Shown here in pieces: positions 4,601 through 40,107 of a stretch of DNA of 64,000 nucleotides. The notes beneath the pieces were generated by a model. That model was not told the DNA's origin. It searched no databases and saw only the letters and a program-made list of their open reading frames with translations. Source of the DNA: Candidatus Moraniibacteriota bacterium. Lineage in GTDB: Bacteria > Patescibacteriota > Minisyncoccia > Moranbacterales > UBA1568. Position numbers and translations under genes: made by a program. The stretch lies in contig CAVZUR010000005.1 in assembly GCA_963778555.1 (NCBI GenBank), positions 97,756 through 161,755 of the forward strand, in the 5' to 3' direction. How positions within the stretch are numbered: position 1 is the stretch's first letter; every line of letters starts with the position of its first letter.

Positions 4601-5629
4601 CGATTGAAGAAGAATATCATCCCGTTTGATAGTGTCCTGGATAATCTCGCCTCATTGACGCCCGTTACCTACAACTGGAGAAGTGATGAATTTCCGGATA
4701 AGCATTTCGGAGAAGCTGTGCAGCGCGGTCTGATTGCTCAGGATGTACAACGGGTATTTCCAGAGCTTGTGAAACAGGATGACGATGGCTATCTGCAGAT
4801 TGATTTTTCGAGCATTCAGTTCTATCTCTTGCAAGGTATCAAGGAAGAATACGCGTTGATTCAAGACCAATCAAACAGTATCGCCGCATTGTCTCTGGAG
4901 ACGACAGCTAGTATCACGACCTTGTCTGAACTCGAAGCAGCCGTTGAGGGACAGTTGATACTCGCGAGCGCGAACTTCACGACGCTGGCGGAAAAAGATG
5001 CCTTGATTGATACCAAACTGACAGAACATGATACGTACTTCGCCCGCGACCTGGCGCGGCTCGACGCAATTGATGCGCTGACGGCTCAGATGGCGCTCGA
5101 TCAGAACGCAGCCGCGGCCAACCTGGTGACGCTTCAGACTGAAATGACGGTTTTGACCGAGCAAGTCGGCACGCTCATGGAATTCTTCAACACGCTGGAC
5201 CTCGGCAATATGGTCGCGAAAGACGAGCTCGGCAATGTCGACCTGCTCGGCGGCACGCTCCGGGCCACTGCGCTCGCCACTGGCGGTATCACTATCGAAG
5301 TTGCCGATGAAGAGGCTCCGACCATTGGAACAGCGATGATCCTTCCAGTCGAGACGGACGCGGACGGCGATGGCAAAGATGATGAGACTGGTTCGGACGG
5401 CAAGAGTACGAGCGTCCTGACAAAAGCAATGATCCCGATGATCAACGGCTCACGCATCTTCACGAGCTTCAAGGGCAATCCGAACGCGTTTAGCTGGATC
5501 GAAAAGATCGTCACTGATGACGGGGAGTATGTCGGATTCAAGATCCGCGTCTCGGCGCCGGTCACGGAAAAGATCAAGGTCGACTGGTGGCTGATCGAGC
5601 AGAAGGATACGTTCTCGTCGAATCCATAA
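1481..5629 (+). CDS. Giant Thr/Gly/Ala-rich repetitive surface fibre-like protein with a C-terminal tail-fibre intramolecular chaperone (Peptidase_S74-like) domain
   Basis: 1382-aa uninterrupted ORF with low-complexity T/G/A/S repeats and an internal 105-aa tandem repeat. It continues with CSSDERLKKNI...VTYNW...GLIAQDVQRVFPELV, an Ala/Leu/Glu-rich helical segment and a ~150-aa terminal domain. Genuine coding appears to join this frame only near ~1620; the listed ATG is not the real start. Confidence 0.8.
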   Translation: MLNPPSRIQLASMECKSTSPTTHPLRETPKMRFGFRTRSRERHRQCGRSLLLLDNADTTATGTTIVTDAIAITNSGGSNFTNFLNTPTLDISAAGAITGATGITSSGNITFSSLTAGSVLFAGTSGILQQDNANFFWDDTNNRLGIGDTTPDGRFDFDLASTSTTAANEYGGNYTFTDTGVVTTGTDNTIGESVTVTRTGATGGTISTYGSLITATADTAGAGTSAIIGQYVTASGADTTYGFYANVTGTTSATSYGYLSNVTDATTGANTNYAEALQITDTGVVTAGTDITVGDYITVTRTGATGGTINTYGDEIIITTDNAGAGTSTATGELIDTGTAGTTNADTTYGLYVATEANAGTTAFGIYVDAGIQAGTEYAGIFMNGNVGVGDATPLSLFTVGNGDLFQVNSSGAIAAAAGVTSSGTITFSGLSTAGIVTNTAGGVLGTTTAVAATLGGTGFSSYAVGDLLYANTTTSLAKLADVAAGSCLISGGVGVAPTWGVCGAISADSLDFVDFQDTLDLDANLVLNQTTFTWDQSFTGTTTNGFTYTAASLTSGYAMDLNVNGAAVLTSGGALNIDGPTGAAAQAAGSLFKITTTGAVTGTDGSGNSSQISSATVTGTVSSISDAAVMTTTGDLLTLTANAATTTTGLQTINATGLTTGYAMDLNVNGAAVLTSGGAINIDGPTGAAAQASGALLNITTTGAVTGTAGIGNSLQVTSATVTGTVASITDAATMTTTGNLLTLTGNAATTATGLLTVNANGLTTGSAVNIASTATGLTTGGALQTITHSGSNAANIGSLLSLQNTGTASGNISLLIQHNATGTGNLAFRVNDIAGDTTPVVIDGTGQFGIGTAAPTTLFELYGTGSADAIATLTAPDATFDPILKYRTGATPAVQFSLGIDNTDSDKFKIFSGDGVGSGDEFVIDSNGVTTIANLNLGATTFDSDAGAIVWTDMPVTATTAAATVMSYSAQIDATNLMTMYSESNGTGGIQNTRVGILTTAPLDVLHVAGDVRVGTGTTGCVKDADATVLTGTCSSDERLKKNIIPFDSVLDNLASLTPVTYNWRSDEFPDKHFGEAVQRGLIAQDVQRVFPELVKQDDDGYLQIDFSSIQFYLLQGIKEEYALIQDQSNSIAALSLETTASITTLSELEAAVEGQLILASANFTTLAEKDALIDTKLTEHDTYFARDLARLDAIDALTAQMALDQNAAAANLVTLQTEMTVLTEQVGTLMEFFNTLDLGNMVAKDELGNVDLLGGTLRATALATGGITIEVADEEAPTIGTAMILPVETDADGDGKDDETGSDGKSTSVLTKAMIPMINGSRIFTSFKGNPNAFSWIEKIVTDDGEYVGFKIRVSAPVTEKIKVDWWLIEQKDTFSSNP
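3143..3772 (+). repeat. Two in-frame 315-nt (105-aa) tandem repeats inside the giant protein
   Basis: T(S/T)GYAMDLNVNGAAVLTSGGA(L/I)NIDGPTGAAAQA...SATVTGTV.SI.DAA.MTTTG.LLTLT.NAATT.TGL occurs twice, starting at 3143 and 3458. A degraded, frameshifted third copy lies at ~205-700. Confidence 0.85.
4586..4870 (+). other. Peptidase_S74-like intramolecular chaperone / autoproteolysis domain (domain-level feature)
   Basis: The S-D-E-R-L-K-K-N motif, with Ser at the expected self-cleavage position, is followed by PVTYNW and GLIAQDVQ. These are signature elements of the phage tailspike/endosialidase C-terminal chaperone domain (recalled as Pfam PF13884). Confidence 0.7.
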
Positions 5630-5967: not shown

Positions 5968-6003
5968 TGTAACATAATTCCACGGCCGTGGAATTATGGT
6001 ACA
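5968..6003. promoter_or_regulatory. 36-nt near-perfect palindrome, copy 1 (tgtaacataattccacggccgtggaattatggtaca)
   Basis: Self-complementary apart from one position. Located 13 nt downstream of the stop of the 6016-6576 gene, with a nearly identical copy at 6640-6675. Confidence 0.6.
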
Positions 6004-6015
6004 GTGAGAAAAAGG

Positions 6016-6576
6016 CTATTTCTGTTTAAAAAAATGACGCTTCAGGTGTTCTACATCATTGAGAGTGATCACTGTGGCCACTCGGACGTATGGTTCGGCG
6101 CCGTATAAGTGGACTAATTTCAAGATAGCCGACTCATACGGGTATGGGGAAACAAAGACGCTTTGTTGAAGTTTATAAAACTCCAATGTCTGGAGATGTT
6201 CACGCAGGACGTCTCGAAATGCTCGATTGGCTTCCGGAATATCGAAGAGAACCAGGCGCCACTTCTTATCCCACGCTTTCGGCTTTCTCAAATGGATAGA
6301 ATCACCGAAAAGGCTGAGTACTTGAGCTTCACGTTGACCCTCTTTGGTCAGCACTAAGCGGTACGAACCATCCGAAAGCTTCAATTCCCTAAAGAGTTTT
6401 TGGTGCGACAGCCGACGAAGAGAACGATTGAAACTTCGCTGGTCGATCTCCTTCCATCCGGCATGGGCGAGTCTGAGCGCTCTGAAATACTGAGCGGGGG
6501 ATTGAACTGCGCCGAGCGCCACCCCAGTCAAGAGCACAAGAAGAATTTTCTGCTGTACTGGACCGAATTTATACAT
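6016..6576 (-). CDS. PaaX-family-like putative transcriptional regulator
   Basis: 186 aa. The N-terminal region is winged-helix-like. The central motif KKWRLVLFDIPEANRAFRDVLREHLQTLEFYKLQQSVFVSPYP matches the W-x-L-V-x-FDIPE...R...LR..L...GF..LQ.SVW..P signature of PaaX-type regulators. Confidence 0.6.
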   Translation of the reverse strand: MYKFGPVQQKILLVLLTGVALGAVQSPAQYFRALRLAHAGWKEIDQRSFNRSLRRLSHQKLFRELKLSDGSYRLVLTKEGQREAQVLSLFGDSIHLRKPKAWDKKWRLVLFDIPEANRAFRDVLREHLQTLEFYKLQQSVFVSPYPYESAILKLVHLYGAEPYVRVATVITLNDVEHLKRHFFKQK

Positions 6577-6639: not shown

Positions 6640-6675
6640 TGTAACATAATTCTACGGCCGTGGAATTATGTTACA
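6640..6675. promoter_or_regulatory. 36-nt near-perfect palindrome, copy 2 (tgtaacataattctacggccgtggaattatgttaca); candidate operator
   Basis: Lies 64 nt upstream of the start codon of the PaaX-like gene, in its presumed promoter region. It differs from copy 1 at two positions. Confidence 0.6.
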
Positions 6676-34587: not shown

Positions 34588-34625
34588 GTATACCACTACA
34601 CCAATATATTGGTGTAGTGGTATAC
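34588..34625. promoter_or_regulatory. Perfect 38-nt palindrome (gtataccactacaccaata|tattggtgtagtggtatac) upstream of P4
   Basis: The two 19-nt arms are exact reverse complements with no spacer. The element overlaps a possible -10 (tatacc/tatact) and ends 47 nt before the P4 start at 34673. Confidence 0.7.
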
Positions 34626-35590: not shown

Positions 35591-36400
35591 ATGAACACAA
35601 AAAGAAACCGGCGACCCCATACTGAAATCTTCCCAAAAATGATTGTTTTTGGTGTTGTTCTGTTGTTCGGAGCATTGTTTCTCACGCCTTCTCCGGCGTC
35701 GGCCCAGAGCTGCGTCGGGACCTGTGTGCCGAACTCTATCGGCTGCCAGGGTACGCTGATTCCGGGTCCCGGTACTTGCCCAGATCCGGCGAATGAAGAA
35801 TGTTGTTGGGGCGGTGCGATCCCTGATCCAGTACCGACTGGGGGTGGTCCAGCAGCTTCAGCTGGTGGCGGACCGGTCTCTATGACGTCTACAGACGTCT
35901 CCAATCCGCTCAGCTTCACCACAGTGGATACGCTTTTGACGAACGTTCTCGGTTTCGTCCAGAGCTTCATGGTCATCCTCTCCCTCATCTTCATCGTCAT
36001 CGGCGCAATCATGTATATCACCTCGGGTGGGGACTCGGGCCGTATCGAGACGGCCAAGAAGGCCATCGCCGCGGCTCTCATCGGCCTGGCCATCGGTATT
36101 GCGGCCCCGGCCTTCCTGAAAGAGATCGCCCAGATCCTCGGCTGGACCGATGTCCCGAGCAATGTGAGCGGTGCCAAGTCCCTCCTCGAAATCGCCGGCG
36201 GCGTTCTGAACTTCCTCCTCTCTGTCGTCGGCATCATCGCCCTCATCATGCTCGTCGTCGGTGCCCTCATGTATCTGACCGCGGCCGGGGATGAAGATCG
36301 GATCGATACCGGCAAGAAGATCGTGAAGTACTCCATTATCGGCATTACGATTGCTTTGGCCGCCATGGTCTTGGTGCGGCAAGTCGCGGGGTTTTTCTAA
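35591..36400 (+). CDS. Pilin-like protein P6: one Cys-rich module plus two tandem TrbC/VirB2-like hairpin domains
   Basis: 269 aa. Signal peptide, SCVGTCVPNSIGCQGTLIPGPGTCPDPANEECCWGG, Gly/Pro linker, then hairpin 1 (ILSLIFIVIGAIMYITSGGDSGRIETAKKAIAAALIGLAIGIAAP) and hairpin 2 (LLSVVGIIALIMLVVGALMYLTAAGDEDRIDTGKKIVKYSIIGITIALAAMVL). Confidence 0.75.
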   Translation: MNTKRNRRPHTEIFPKMIVFGVVLLFGALFLTPSPASAQSCVGTCVPNSIGCQGTLIPGPGTCPDPANEECCWGGAIPDPVPTGGGPAASAGGGPVSMTSTDVSNPLSFTTVDTLLTNVLGFVQSFMVILSLIFIVIGAIMYITSGGDSGRIETAKKAIAAALIGLAIGIAAPAFLKEIAQILGWTDVPSNVSGAKSLLEIAGGVLNFLLSVVGIIALIMLVVGALMYLTAAGDEDRIDTGKKIVKYSIIGITIALAAMVLVRQVAGFF

Positions 36401-36414
36401 ACTGATACGAGGCT

Positions 36415-38241
36415 ATGCCATTTCGAAATCTTTTGGTCATCATCTTCCTCTCCGCTGTCTTCGGACTGTTCATTCCGGGCTTGACCCAGGCGCAGACCTG
36501 CCAGGAAAATGGCGGTGCCTGCCGTCCGGGCTGGGTATCGGGTTGCGCTAACCCAGAGACGCCTGTGTCTGGAACTTGTCCGGCTGCCCCTTCAAATGCT
36601 CCTCCGGGTGGTGTGCTCATCTGTTGCCGCGCGAGCCAGTCAGGAGTGATGAATGCACGGATAGCGGAGGAGTCTGTCGAAGCGCTTACTATTCGACGGA
36701 GTTTCCGAACGCTGAATGGCCCGCTCAACCTGCCTGTGGATATAGCACTGCAGAAGTCACATCATCGGCACGCTGCAGCAACTTTTTTGCGCTCTGTTGC
36801 GTCCCGCCGCCGAATCTCGGCGCCAGCTGCAATGGTGGATCCGGCACTTGTCTGTCGGCTGGGAGCTGTGCGAGTCCGGTCGCGTCGGCTGACTGCGTTG
36901 GGGGGGCTGTGTGCTGTCCACCGCTCTCGCCGAATGTTGGAACTTCGTGCGGTGGTACCGCCACGTGCCAGTTGACCTGTAGCGGCACACCGTCATCCTC
37001 GCCAACATGCGTCGGTGGAACCATGTGTTGTACACCGACTCCGCCCCCTCCTCCCCCCCGCCGCCGCCGGTGGACAATGTTGGAACTGCCTGTGGTGGGA
37101 CGGCCACCTGCCAATTTGCTTCGAGTTGCGCTGGGACGCAAGCTCCCTCCGCCATTTGCACGGGATCGACCGTGTGCTGCACGCCGACTCCCCACCGCCA
37201 GGCGCGAATGTCGGGACCGCCGTGCGTGGGGGATACTGACCGGCGGTGCGGGTGTCTGCGAATTTACGTCGCTCTGCAGCAATACGGAAACCTCGGGGAC
37301 CTGCACAGGGGGGACGGAATGCTGTATCTTTTCTGCTCCGCCTCCGCCGCCGCCTGTCTCGACCTGCGCTTCAGTCGGTGGTACCTGCGCGCGGGCCGTC
37401 GATGGCTGTCCGGATGGCGAGGTGCCTGGCGGCACGTGCAGCGCCAATCAGCTCTGCTGTGCAGCGGCTTCCTGTGCTGCCATCGGCGGTACGTGTACCC
37501 GGATCGATGCGGGTTGTAGTGCTGGTGAGCGGACGGGGATCTGCAGCGCGGGCCAGATGTGCTGCGCGCCGACGAGTACGGCTGTCTGTGAACCGCTCGG
37601 TACCTGTGTGCCTGCCGGGGGCTGCCTCACTGGGGAAGTGCCAGGCGGCATCCTGTGCCGATCCCGGCCGGATGTGTTGCGCTGTGTCCGCACCGGCTGG
37701 TGGTGGGCCGCTCAATGTTCCCGGGAGCGCGCTCAATCTCCCCAATCCACTCCTCTTCAATGACTTCAATGGGCTTTTCATCGCAGCTTTGAGTTCGCTC
37801 CAGAATCTCCTCGTCATCCTCTCCCTCATCTTCATCGTCATCGGCGCAATCATGTATATCACCTCGGGTGGGGACTCGGGCCGTATCGAGACGGCCAAGA
37901 AGGCCATCGCCGCAGCTTTGATCGGCCTGGCCATCGGTATCGCGGCTCCGGCCTTCCTGAAAGAGATCGCTCAGATCCTCGGCTGGAGCGATGTCCCGAG
38001 CAATGTGAGCGGTGCCAAGTCCCTCCTCGAGATCGCCGGCGGCGTTCTGAACTTCCTCCTCTCTGTCGTCGGCATCATCGCCCTCATCATGCTCGTCGTC
38101 GGTGCCCTCATGTATCTGACCGCGGCCGGGGATGAAGATCGGATCGATACCGGCAAGAAGATCGTGAAGTACTCTATTATCGGCATTACGATTGCTTTGG
38201 CCGCCATGGTCTTGGTGCGGCAGGTTGCGGGGTTTTTCTAG
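36415..38241 (+). pseudogene. Pilin-like protein P7: signal peptide, about nine Cys-rich modules with poly-Pro linkers, then two hairpin domains; broken by at least 5-6 frame changes
   Basis: A conceptual protein can be followed through ORFs 36415-36975 (f1), 36576-37763 (f3), 37007-37519 (f2), 37015-37239 (f1), back to f3, then 37246-38241 (f1). Frame switches fall near 36630-36645, the C7 run at 37053-37059, ~37190, ~37222, ~37236 and ~37645. Modules follow C-x3-4-G-x-C...C...C-x2-6-CC. Confidence 0.6.
37813..38241 (+). repeat. 429-nt direct repeat of 35972-36400 (the double-hairpin 3' ends of P6 and P7)
   Basis: Constant offset of 1841 nt. Only scattered substitutions were seen by eye, e.g. 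ggaccgatg vs ggagcgatg and caagtcgcg vs caggttgcg. Confidence 0.85.
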
Positions 38242-38271
38242 CGCAAGTGCATATTTGAGAAATTGAGAAAA

Positions 38272-38569
38272 CCACCACACCAATCATTCTTCACCGTGTA
38301 TGTTTTATGTTTATGTGTTGAAGAGTCAGAAAGATGGTAAAGGATACATCGGTTCCACGAATGATCTCAAAAGAAGACTTTCCGAACATCAAGGAGGACA
38401 AGTGACTTCGACAAAGTCTCGCCGTCCTTTCAAACTAGTCTATTACGAGGCTTATTCAGCCGAGACTGATGCCAGGAAACGGGAGGAAAATCTCAAGTTA
38501 AAGAGTCGCGCCTATGCCCAACTACTGAAAAGGATTTCAGAAAGTCTCAAAGTATGATTGGTGTGGTGG
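38272..38569 (+). mobile_element. 298-bp cassette: GIY-YIG ORF bracketed by perfect 16-bp inverted repeats
   Basis: ccaccacaccaatcat at 38272-38287 and its exact reverse complement atgattggtgtggtgg at 38554-38569. The right repeat contains the ORF stop codon. Confidence 0.55.
38300..38557 (+). CDS. Stand-alone GIY-YIG nuclease-domain protein
   Basis: 85 aa. FYVYVLKSQKDGKGYIGSTNDLKRRLSEHQ...KLVYYEAYSAETDARKREENLK matches the GIY-x10-YIG, Arg and Glu catalytic-core pattern. Confidence 0.8.
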   Translation: MFYVYVLKSQKDGKGYIGSTNDLKRRLSEHQGGQVTSTKSRRPFKLVYYEAYSAETDARKREENLKLKSRAYAQLLKRISESLKV

Positions 38570-38573
38570 AAAA

Positions 38574-38610
38574 GAAAAAACGGGCTTCACATTGCTGTGT
38601 TGCCCGTTTT
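38574..38610. terminator. Bidirectional rho-independent terminator between convergent genes
   Basis: A6 run, stem acgggc/gcccgt (38580-38585 / 38602-38607), then T4. Confidence 0.55.
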
Positions 38611-38640: not shown

Positions 38641-40107
38641 CTAAGTGCACTGCTCGATCATGACCTGGAGACTGCCGGGTCCTTGGCGGTGGAGATCCGG
38701 CGCCGCGTAGATGTTTCGGCCCAGGGTGATGGTCAACGGCTGCGACGTCTCGATGCGGCCCTGTTCGCCGATGAAGAGGGGCTTGTATCCCCACTCCTTG
38801 GCGAGGACGAAGAAGCGTCCATAGGGCTGCGTCTCCCGGGCGATTACCTCGCTCGGGAGCGGGGCTCCCGGTACTGGTTGCGGTCTCCAGTATCCGCCGC
38901 CATAGCCGGTAAAGGCTTGCCCTTTGTTGTAGCAGGTATTGATCCTGCCCAGGGCATCCATGTCGCAGGAGTAGTCCAGTGACATGTCGGTTTTTTTCAG
39001 GAAGTGCTGCTGCACTGTCCCACTCACCTGGAATTTGTATTTCCCAGGCGGCAATGGCGCATCGAGTGTCAACCGGCCATTGGTCGACTCACTTGGCACA
39101 TAGTCCACTTCCAGATAGGGGGAGCAGACCGAGGCCATGGCGACGGGTGTCGCCGGAGCCGGTGCAGTTGCCTGCCCCATGCTCGTTGACGCCGTACTCG
39201 GTGCCGTCGTGACCGTGGTCGCGTCAGCACCGATCTTGGCGCATTCTTCGAACTCGGCCGCGGTCGGGATGACCGGGGCGATCTTCTTGGCTGGGTCGCC
39301 CTTAGCTTTTGCCTCGAGCTTCGCGTAGCAAGCATTGCGCTCGCCTTGCTTGGCGGTTTCGGCTGCCATTTCGGCTTGGACTCGGGCGGCTGCGGTGGCC
39401 GCTTCGGCACGCCGCTTGGCATCCGTCGACCGATCATCGATCGACTTCAGGCCCAGCTTGTGCTGAGTCCAGGCGACCAGATCCTTCTGATATTCGCGAA
39501 TACCAGGAGTCCAGCTGCCCAGGGTCCAGACGATCACAGCGATCAGGATAGTCGCCGAAAAGTTCAGGACGAACTTGCCGCTCCGATTGGTGTACATGCA
39601 CCAGACGGTGAGGAACACCGATGCCGCGAGCATGACGATGGCACCGACGGGATTGCTCCCGATGGGCCAGAGCGCCAGGACGAAGAAGGGGAGTGAACCA
39701 TAGAGCGCCACCATTGCGGCGAATCGGCCGAGCGCGTAGATCCACGTTTCTGCCCACTTCTTGCCGTCCGTTACGCTCAGTCCAACTTCGCCCCCCGGTT
39801 GCGCAGCGACGAAAGCCACACCCGCTGGTCCGAAGATGTTCAGCGGCGTCAGAATGAACGCCACGGCGGTGAGCAGGAACGCCATTGCGGCGATCCAGTT
39901 GAGGTGGCGGAGAGAGTCGGGGAACCAGACGTTCACCACGGCGCCCACGATGAGGGCGGCGAAGTACGCGAGGACGAAGAGTCGGGTGACCCTGAACCAG
40001 CCACGGTGGAAAGAGAACCACCGACCAGTCCAGTCCGCATTCACGAGAGGACCGAAGTACTCCAAGGGTGAAACATTGGGAACAGGGGGAACAGGTTGCG
40101 TTGCCAT
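38641..40107 (-). CDS. Polytopic membrane protein of unknown function with a charged Ala/Lys/Glu linker and a C-terminal soluble domain
   Basis: 488 aa. AAGGAG sits 8 nt upstream and overlaps the stop of the upstream gene. About 6 TM helices in the first 230 aa, then AKRRAEAATAAARVQAEMAAETAKQ, then a beta-rich domain. No family recognised. Confidence 0.7.
   Translation of the reverse strand: MATQPVPPVPNVSPLEYFGPLVNADWTGRWFSFHRGWFRVTRLFVLAYFAALIVGAVVNVWFPDSLRHLNWIAAMAFLLTAVAFILTPLNIFGPAGVAFVAAQPGGEVGLSVTDGKKWAETWIYALGRFAAMVALYGSLPFFVLALWPIGSNPVGAIVMLAASVFLTVWCMYTNRSGKFVLNFSATILIAVIVWTLGSWTPGIREYQKDLVAWTQHKLGLKSIDDRSTDAKRRAEAATAAARVQAEMAAETAKQGERNACYAKLEAKAKGDPAKKIAPVIPTAAEFEECAKIGADATTVTTAPSTASTSMGQATAPAPATPVAMASVCSPYLEVDYVPSESTNGRLTLDAPLPPGKYKFQVSGTVQQHFLKKTDMSLDYSCDMDALGRINTCYNKGQAFTGYGGGYWRPQPVPGAPLPSEVIARETQPYGRFFVLAKEWGYKPLFIGEQGRIETSQPLTITLGRNIYAAPDLHRQGPGSLQVMIEQCT

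Follow-up and report, generated by a model that had tools for sequence, protein, structure and literature searches.

A 298-bp GIY-YIG nuclease cassette from Candidatus Moraniibacteriota is one copy of a widespread element family bounded by inverted repeats

A 64-kb stretch of the genome of a Candidatus Moraniibacteriota bacterium (contig CAVZUR010000005.1; hereafter the window, from which the evidence on this genome comes) contains a small gene for a GIY-YIG nuclease that is enclosed by inverted repeats and lies at the end of an array of pilin genes. We found that this cassette is genuine and exactly inserted, and that it belongs to a family of ~290-bp elements that is widespread in the ultra-small bacteria of the candidate phyla radiation (CPR)/Patescibacteria. 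Comparison with its relatives shows a discrete unit that is bounded by its repeat arms, carries a short target duplication (4 nucleotides (nt) in most subfamilies), occupies many sites and decays to hairpins consisting of an arm pair. The reading we favor, and consider probable, is that the cassette is a compact insertion element with a nuclease as its only gene, one copy of a family bounded by terminal inverted repeats. The features of the cassette, of its insertion site and of a second, shorter unit in the window are as follows.

38268–38271, no strand: left direct repeat AAAA, candidate 4-bp target-site duplication, read from the sequence
38272–38569, plus strand: whole element from arm to arm, 298 bp, delimited by the size range of the family and the empty-site alignment
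38272–38291, plus strand: left terminal inverted repeat CCACCACACCAATCATTCTT, 20 nt, the first 16 of them perfectly complementary to the right arm, from the inverted-repeat scan
38300–38557, plus strand: open reading frame (ORF) of the single-domain GIY-YIG nuclease of 85 amino acids (aa), Pfam PF01541, E = 1.4e-17
38550–38569, plus strand: right terminal inverted repeat AAGTATGATTGGTGTGGTGG with the stop codon inside, from the sequence and the inverted-repeat scan
38570–38573, no strand: right direct repeat AAAA, read from the sequence
38577–38610, no strand: terminator-like hairpin of the host locus, which marks the insertion site and lies outside the element (inverted repeat I9)
34588–34625, no strand: putative ORF-less derivative, a perfect 38-nt palindrome with the halves GTATACCACTACACCAATAT and ATATTGGTGTAGTGGTATAC (whole: GTATACCACTACACCAATATATTGGTGTAGTGGTATAC), from sequence comparison

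The original prediction, which was made from the letters of the window, described perfect 16-bp inverted repeats around the 85-aa ORF, and these are indeed present: the 16-nt sequence CCACCACACCAATCAT occupies 38272–38287 and its exact reverse complement 38554–38569. Allowing one mismatch, the inverted repeat reaches 20 nt (38272–38291 and 38550–38569) with 95% complementarity. Its right repeat does overlap the stop codon, as the TGA of the ORF (38555–38557) lies within the right arm. The 298-bp unit is wedged, again as described, between the end of the pilin array and a terminator. On the 5′ side the neighbor is the last gene of the T4SS_pilin-domain array, which ends at 38241. On the 3′ side, seven bases beyond the right arm, a conserved GC-rich hairpin (38577–38610) stands between an A-run and a T-run and is followed by a convergent ORF of 488 aa (38641–40107). 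The exact 16-mer, with zero mismatches, occurs at just these two spots in the window, and no second copy of the 85-aa ORF was found there. The cassette is an island of composition, with a GC content of 42–44% compared with 56–68% in its flanks. Its GC content at third codon positions is 0.40, compared with 0.73–0.79 in the neighbor genes (37246–38241 and 38641–40107) and 0.52 in an orthologous copy at locus L086. The composition of the cassette has not drifted to that of the host, despite synonymous sites that are saturated between the window and L086 copies (proportion of synonymous differences, pS, 0.82).

Enclosure by inverted repeats is a trait of the family and not of this copy alone. A protein search returned more than 1,000 close homologues, mostly 84–85 aa long, with identities of up to 85% and largely from Patescibacteria, and an exhaustive search yielded 8,330 clusters (50% identity) at E ≤ 1e-3 and 1,063 at E ≤ 1e-10. 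We examined 89 copies in 80 loci fetched from reference genomes, designated by L numbers, and an independent set of 74 metagenome copies. One arm was sought before the start codon and one around the stop codon using an ungapped score, and 445 random intervals of the same length from the same loci served as controls. A score of at least 12 was reached by 65% of the 89 reference copies and by 0.2% of the controls, a score of at least 14 by 61% and by none of the 445, respectively; the window cassette scores 17. The metagenome set replicated this result, with 50 of 74 copies scoring at least 12. The further copies with flanking repeats that the original prediction proposed to look for thus exist in both sets.

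The arms are 12–31 nt long (median 20) and the elements measure 284–337 bp from arm to arm. Arms and ORF are tightly packed: the right arm overlaps the stop codon or the end of the ORF in 86 of 108 family members, and the left arm extends to the start codon in 31 elements. The arms have a C-rich outer motif in common, CCCCCACACC and variants of it. The outer-arm types CCCCCACAC(C/T), CCC(C)TCAC, CCCGCACAC and (G/C)CACCACACC cover 94 of 108 arms, and CCCCCCACC is a further outer-arm type that is conserved across subfamilies. The window arms are homologous to the (G/C)CACCACACCAAT... arms of L004, L086, L087 and L090. The inner part of the arms varies in sequence while complementarity is kept. 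Judged from the compared arms, it is the outer sequence itself that is conserved and not only its pairing.

Direct repeats lie immediately outside these arms. When the first base of the C-run was used as an objective definition of the termini, 25 of 52 elements (48%) proved to have exact direct repeats of 4 nt or more directly abutting the arms, compared with 1.8% in a control that paired left and right flanks from different elements. The repeats are 4 nt (15 elements), 5 nt (2) or 7 nt (8) long, with none of 3 or 6 nt, and in the metagenome set they were found in 46% of cases versus 6% in the control. Since the repeat sequence varies by locus and matches the local target, the repeats are target-derived. 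Direct repeats resembling target-site duplications, which the original prediction had suggested checking for, flank the arms of about half of the elements. In the window the candidate duplication AAAA sits in an A-rich tract of low complexity and is thus weak evidence alone. It agrees with the family-wide rule of 4-nt direct repeats; moreover, AAAA on the left and right also flanks the orthologous L086 cassette, and relatives free of the cassette have a single A-run at this place.

Two further observations concern these flanks. The repeat TTGA recurs in L126, L130, L146, L155, L165, L043 and L070, and together with the first arm base it reads TTGAC at both ends, like the −35 box of a promoter. 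This could reflect preferred targets, or a promoter element facing outward or inward. At L080 (1–60), just a 7-nt spacer separates a right arm from the left arm that comes after it (CAAGTGAGGGGCCGGTAGCCCCTCACTTGG), an arrangement that indicates putative tandem elements with one common target repeat.

The junction between pilin array and terminator offers a view of the same site with and without the element. Homologues of the 488-aa neighbor occur in related Moraniibacteriota-like genomes in the same order, with NusA, two conserved ORFs and the convergent pilin array. L086 carries an intact cassette at this junction; its protein is 85% identical, the cassette is again flanked by AAAA, and a compensatory C:G to T:A change distinguishes its arms from those of the window. 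In L081 the spacer between pilin gene and neighbor is 93 nt long without any trace of the cassette, and homology between the window and this cassette-free locus picks up directly outside the right arm. The spacer of L082–L084 (121 nt) aligns as CCACC, a gap of ~245 nt and AAAGTCTCAAAG...GGTGAGATG; in L082 (7560–7682), as in L083 and L084, the 12-mer AAAGTCTCAAAG equals the 3′ end of the window ORF and is accompanied by a degenerate right arm. We had considered L082 as a clean empty site and rejected this because the alignment shows CCACC, the 12-mer and the degenerate right arm. The spacer of L082–L084 is more likely a decayed cassette remnant from which an internal deletion removed the ORF. 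All these loci, among them L081, L082 and L086, keep the terminator (AAAGAAAAAACGGGC...GCCCGTT).

By this comparison of loci, the orthologous junction is polymorphic, with a cassette in the window and L086, a remnant in L082–L084 and an empty site in L081, so the search for empty sites in relatives that had been proposed with the original prediction was answered with cassette, remnant or nothing. The two sequences that describe the site without the element are listed here.

Empty-site sequence of the junction: GAGAAAAGAAAAAACGGGC
Expected junction of an excised or empty allele: GAGAAAA directly joined to GAAAAAACGGGC

Judged by the identity of the neighbor protein (56% versus 47%), L081 is the closer relative, and the pattern across these loci requires either precise loss or independent gains.

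Besides complete copies, the family leaves behind arm pairs without an ORF. The window itself holds one full copy and one ORF-less copy, the latter being the palindrome at 34588–34625. Its halves correspond to the cassette arm with two changes, it is flanked by TATA on both sides and it lies between two pilin genes; the related pilin arrays of L081 and L082 contain no hairpin like it. We take it for a probable relic or derivative of the cassette family that lacks the ORF. ORF-less arm pairs of 30–140 nt, with 0–110 nt between the arms, were also found at L006, L026, L050, L057, L058, L061 and L074, some of them with 4-nt flanking repeats (TCAA in L006, TAAA in L061). At L002 (~4940–5000) an arm-pair hairpin (GCACCACACCAACTTCTT, 9 nt, AAGAAGTTGGTGTGGTGC) stands just upstream of an armless copy. 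Several copies can share a genome. One Saccharibacteria metagenome-assembled genome contains full elements at L068 and L074 that are 87% identical, have unrelated flanks and are both flanked by TATG. The 20-nt arms of these elements recur there in an ORF-less unit of 139 nt and in a further, partial copy. In a second genome (L061 and L069) three different tRNA genes each have a copy.

The family prefers sites at or in tRNA, RNase P RNA and rRNA genes, where it is co-oriented with the gene and regenerates the gene end. A tRNA gene starts within 60 nt downstream of 25 of the 89 reference copies, mostly at 2–27 nt, in loci with a tRNA density of 0.17 per kb. The tRNA-linked copies have the orientation of the tRNA in 22 of 25 reference and 9 of 10 metagenome cases. 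Subfamilies differ in the end they occupy. GCCCCTCAC elements lie 5′ of tRNA-Ala, tRNA-Val or tRNA-Ile, duplicate tRNA positions 4–10 and restore the tRNA 5′ end with their terminal GGG(G); CCCCCACACC elements at tRNA 5′ ends do likewise with 4-nt repeats. The (G/C)CACCACACC subfamily, which includes the window copy, is often found at tRNA 3′ ends, and there the first bases of the element (GCACCA and variants) are those of the tRNA discriminator base plus CCA. No RNA gene hosts the window copy, whose site is the 3′ untranslated region of a pilin gene, immediately ahead of the terminator.

In a group of these loci (L004, L087–L089, L090, L091, L108 and L118) the first 6 nt of the element (GCACCA, ACACCA or CACCCA) co-vary with the tRNA discriminator and CCA, and a second copy of these 6 nt follows the right 4-nt repeat. 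The resulting right junction is a small palindrome, for example TGGTGTC-TC-GACACCA. It could be the footprint of hairpin opening, a 10-nt duplication, or the mark of a target chosen for its identity to the element end.

RNase P RNA genes are occupied in a comparable manner. Rfam places the 5′ end of an RNase P RNA gene directly next to the CCCCCCACCAC element of L057, and at L076, L167, L168 and L170 the RNase P 5′ motif GGAAAGTCC..., read from the sequence, comes right after the right arm. In L057 the RNase P RNA gene additionally contains an arm hairpin without an ORF. At L058 (4968–5272) the 5′ motif GGAAAGTCCG is on the left of the element and the remainder of the RNase P RNA gene on its right; Rfam puts the start of the RNA in the right arm, where its first positions fit poorly. 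This element appears to interrupt the RNase P RNA. At L054 (~4962–5272) a 23S rRNA gene contains an element on its own strand, a position like that of rRNA intervening sequences and of the non-intron GIY-YIG insertions known from CPR rRNA genes. In those genes, all GIY-YIG ORFs were found in insertions that resemble neither group I nor group II introns (PMC11270868), and the L054 copy agrees with this report. Inverted repeats, duplications and sites at tRNA genes, at RNase P RNA genes or between genes are not described for the insertions in that report.

The original prediction had offered an action of the arms in RNA as its alternative: the arms would pair in the transcript, and the stem would control translation or stability of the message. 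The stem might also guide processing of the RNase III type, as in rRNA intervening sequences, and may be of importance for copies within RNA genes. Such a stem is predicted to form, as the minimum-free-energy fold of the cassette contains the arm–arm stem (−88.6 kcal/mol, z = −3.5). A role in RNA would also be consistent with the compensatory arm change between window and L086, with the tRNA orientation of 22 of the 25 tRNA-linked copies and with the copies in 23S rRNA and RNase P RNA, host molecules that have to remain functional. The cassette is oriented as the gene upstream of it and has no internal promoter; a simple scan found no sense-strand promoter in or before it. With no room for a promoter of its own, and with its site in the 3′ untranslated region of the pilin gene before the terminator, the cassette is probably expressed by read-through from the pilin gene. 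A simple terminator scan did not call the conserved hairpin at 38577–38610.

Pairing in RNA, however, leaves the target-derived repeats, the empty site and the ORF-less hairpins unexplained, and the outer arm sequence is conserved across subfamilies beyond what pairing demands. Arm mismatches are 17 of the G:T type versus 17 of the A:C type, so there is no bias toward wobble pairs on the sense strand. No Rfam family covers the cassette, the sole match being a sub-threshold small RNA over the terminator. As an account of the cassette the RNA stem is quite improbable, and a role at the RNA level is likely to be additional rather than primary.

The encoded protein is a GIY-YIG nuclease reduced to its catalytic domain. 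It matches PF01541 with 64.2 bits against a cut-off of 22.6. In a comparison of 84 homologues, Y3, Y5, Y16, G18, E50, R61 and E62 are invariant, and R26 and H30 are kept in at least 90%; we take the invariant positions to have the catalytic roles of their counterparts in UvrC and I-TevI, by homology. The AlphaFold2 model (pLDDT 95.5) predicts the order strand–strand–helix–strand–helices of the GIY-YIG fold. Foldseek ranked the UPF0213 protein BH0048, At-HIGLE and Slx1 best, followed by I-TevI and UvrC, and by sequence the closest solved relatives are UPF0213 proteins as well. Fold and invariant catalytic positions are those of the UPF0213/SLX1 group (BH0048, EF2693, Slx1, At-HIGLE). SLX1-type enzymes cut branched and stem-loop DNA, which suits a substrate formed by an inverted repeat. 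Unlike the window family, UPF0213/SLX1 proteins are host repair factors or uncharacterized and have not been described as insertions enclosed by inverted repeats; Slx1, unlike the window protein, has a further domain and needs Slx4.

The original prediction also mentioned homing endonucleases among the carriers of GIY-YIG domains, and on this point one correction is needed. Lacking a DNA-binding domain in its 85 aa, the protein is no classical GIY-YIG homing endonuclease, and its nearest relatives are SLX1/UPF0213 and single-domain nucleases of the Ssn type. A classical free-standing homing endonuclease gene would spread only to cognate empty alleles, by double-strand-break repair. The cassette shares the GIY-YIG catalytic domain with I-TevI and the Seg proteins, and both are selfish inserting genes; the subfamily-specific sites (tRNA 5′ ends, tRNA 3′ CCA ends, the RNase P RNA 5′ end) resemble homing specificity too. 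Yet I-TevI and Seg enzymes exceed 200 aa, have a separate DNA-binding domain and come without duplication or terminal inverted repeats, whereas the window protein has neither a linker nor such a domain. Homing predicts no target duplication, but about half of the copies have one. Furthermore, one subfamily is found at unrelated sites, including the pilin/terminator junction of the window, and the NCBIfam model for group I intron endonucleases (TIGR01453) gives 24.8 bits versus a cut-off of 56. Homing of this kind is highly improbable. A group I intron context was considered separately and rejected because the ORF takes up 258 of the 298 bp and leaves no room for a ribozyme, and because the protein falls below the cut-off of TIGR01453.

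Among described systems, the Ssn nucleases (cd10448) come closest. SsnA of Neisseria is a 94-aa single-domain GIY-YIG nuclease that cuts only single-stranded DNA (ssDNA), beside the NTS/SRM hairpin repeat that flanks its own gene (PMC11893778). Hundreds of these repeats are dispersed, with clusters near genes for surface proteins, and they restrict transformation; SsnA also accepts a stem made of two separate strands (PMC11893778). The authors remark on the layout of NTS-ssnA-NTS, which is like that of an insertion sequence (IS) (PMC11893778; Chenal et al. 2025); their paper reports no duplications, empty sites, ORF-less derivatives, link to RNA genes or tRNA, or Patescibacteria (PMC11893778). 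The window family resembles Ssn in its single-domain GIY-YIG protein (85 aa; <150 aa), in a gene flanked on both sides by pairable sequences and in repeats near surface or pilin genes. It differs in that the window flanks are two halves of one long-range repeat overlapping the start and stop regions, unlike the self-contained hairpins of Ssn, and in having one or two copies per locus compared with hundreds of repeats per genome.

For a direct comparison we used the N. gonorrhoeae orthologue (L085:1489–1770), which lies amid 16 NTS repeats. Aligned over 70 of its 94 residues (74% cover), this orthologue shares 37% identity with the window protein at 47.8 bits; measured against the criterion for membership in the Ssn paper (BLASTP to N. 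meningitidis SsnA, E < 1e-10, at least 75% query cover), the match is borderline in both respects at proteome-size scaling. To BH0048 the window protein scores 46.6 bits, while SsnA and BH0048 score only 26 bits with each other, and the family profile gives about equal scores to BH0048 (52.6 bits) and SsnA (49.2 bits). The Ssn-related motif HGTCWY..YYVSBRH..WNVSBRG..RNCYNB is absent near the cassette, occurs once in the 64-kb window and lies within 500 nt of 2 of 88 relatives, compared with 9 sites in a 3.2-kb Neisseria control. The equal scores to SsnA and UPF0213, together with the different repeat and layout, point to a separate clade of minimal GIY-YIG nucleases. The window family probably works on a related principle, but we do not file it as Ssn.

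An alternative is a domesticated nuclease with cognate sites, comparable to Ssn/NTS or to the repetitive extragenic palindromes (REP) and their associated tyrosine transposases (RAYT): a mobile element that arrived long ago would by now have become resident and taken on a function for the host. It would recognize arm-type hairpins on ssDNA, such as transforming DNA or replication intermediates, and modulate recombination near the loci that they bracket, here the pilin array. The family is under strong purifying selection. The ratio of nonsynonymous to synonymous substitution rates (dN/dS) has a median of 0.24 over 237 pairs. For pairs at the same tRNA site in different genomes it is 0.015–0.11 at a dS of 0.6–1.0 with intact arms, and the window and L086 ORFs differ at a proportion of 0.10 of nonsynonymous sites (pN) and 0.82 of synonymous sites. 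Low dN/dS in combination with conserved arms means that protein and arms are both kept by selection and that several copies are long resident.

This selection, including arms kept in syntenic copies with saturated synonymous sites, fits domestication, as do the low copy number, the 37% identity to SsnA, whose repeats restrict transformation (PMC11893778), and the location of the 34588–34625 hairpin within the pilin array with the cassette at the end of the array. Against it stand the two arm-type sites in 64 kb as opposed to hundreds per genome in Ssn systems, the absence of the published Ssn-related motif near the cassette, and related genomes that do without the cassette at the pilin/terminator locus. 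The preference for RNA-gene ends, the target-derived repeats and the ORF-less derivatives are, in addition, features of insertion. We regard a domesticated nuclease as an unlikely explanation, although one of some weight.

With arms at the exact boundaries, target repeats, polymorphic presence and short non-coding derivatives, the cassette is built like an IS or a miniature inverted-repeat transposable element (MITE). Terminal inverted repeats with a 4-bp duplication are typical of the DDE transposases of IS families. The unit could thus be a non-autonomous cassette that is moved in trans by a conventional transposase encoded elsewhere, with the GIY-YIG gene as a passenger; its classic DDE marks and MITE-like ORF-less derivatives agree with this. 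However, the ~1 Mb of fetched loci yielded no larger element with such arms at its ends, the ORF makes up ~87% of the unit with its start and stop regions embedded in the arms, and it is under strong purifying selection across thousands of lineages. Copy numbers are low, unlike the bursts of MITEs, and the cassette, unlike a MITE, encodes a conserved protein. Mobilization in trans is, on balance, distinctly unlikely. The cassette also differs from an IS, as its sole gene is for a hydrolytic nuclease and its ~290 bp amount to less than half of IS200, at ~700 bp the smallest autonomous IS known to us. REP/RAYT and IS200/IS605 systems resemble the cassette in having a small single gene between inverted repeats that form palindromes. 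Recognition of ssDNA hairpins is likely a common theme and domestication a plausible fate, by analogy. RAYT and TnpA proteins, unlike the window protein, are HUH tyrosine enzymes that join DNA covalently and produce no target duplication, and REPs are numerous genome-wide.

Returning to the nuclease-only insertion element, we propose that the nuclease would serve as the element's own mobility enzyme. It may recognize the stem formed by the two arms on ssDNA, with the ORF looped out, or the arm sequence itself, and would nick or cut at the element boundaries. Recognition of an arm stem is suggested by the structure selectivity of SLX1/UPF0213 enzymes and the hairpin-directed ssDNA cutting of SsnA. 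A staggered cut would then be made at a target resembling the end of the element, a step proposed from the resemblance seen at tRNA ends, and host replication and repair would do the joining and the fill-in that produces the duplication.

All checks that had been suggested along with the original reading of a mobile nuclease cassette came out in its support. Several points nevertheless weigh against it. The only ORF of the cassette is the GIY-YIG nuclease, and no recognized class of transposase (DDE, HUH, serine or tyrosine) is present. A hydrolytic GIY-YIG nuclease cannot rejoin DNA, which leaves the route to the duplication unexplained. No near-identical copies in different contexts were found, the 100% matches being the same locus in one population, and the closest pair within a genome is 87% identical, so recent movement is undocumented. 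About one third of the homologues in both sets have no detectable arms. Judged from divergence and synteny, several copies look long vertically inherited, and a gene useful to the host fits these at least as well as a pure parasite does. Finally, a scan of viral contigs for the family gave one weak match, and carriage by phages, which we had considered as a candidate, is unsupported.

Two observations from the window lie beside the cassette. The pilin-domain ORFs at 35591–36400 and 37246–38241 are almost identical in their C-terminal ~135 aa, and each has an internal 95-nt direct repeat with 73% identity; this suggests that the array may have undergone recent duplication or gene conversion. 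At some distance, another palindrome (TGTAACATAATTCCACGGCCGTGGAATTATGTTACA) and a variant of it (5968–6003 and 6640–6675) flank a minus-strand ORF of 186 aa (6016–6576), whose C-terminal half looks PaaX-like by eye. These palindromes could be operator sites or bound another repeat-enclosed cassette.

No bacterial GIY-YIG element with terminal repeats and target duplication was found described in the literature searched, and as far as this literature shows the family has not previously been described as such. Of what has been described, Ssn nucleases paired with their repeats and the GIY-YIG-bearing insertions of CPR rRNA genes are most closely related to it. A more far-reaching interpretation, which we put forward tentatively and hold to be possible but somewhat less than evenly likely, is that the family is a previously undescribed autonomous class of prokaryotic transposable elements and, at ~290 bp, the smallest known. 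A structure-selective GIY-YIG nuclease would take the place of the transposase, host repair would give rise to the 4-bp duplication, and subfamilies would be specialized on the ends of tRNA, RNase P RNA and rRNA genes. With termini that mimic or regenerate the ends of RNA genes, such elements would ride on the most transcribed and conserved genes of the reduced CPR genomes.

For genome annotation, the arm motifs and 4-nt repeats reveal both elements and ORF-less relics beside tRNA and RNase P genes. Each subfamily combines a tiny nuclease with a defined sequence or structure of 10–20 nt that it would recognize, and the family as a whole is thus a natural library of compact specific nucleases. 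If the nuclease moves its own cassette, it would represent a new enzymatic class among prokaryotic insertion elements and would lower the minimum size of an autonomous mobile element to ~290 bp. It would also account for the non-intron insertions with GIY-YIG genes in CPR rRNA, and would provide mobile ancestors with terminal repeats as a context for Ssn-type nucleases, backing the IS-like origin suggested by the Ssn authors.

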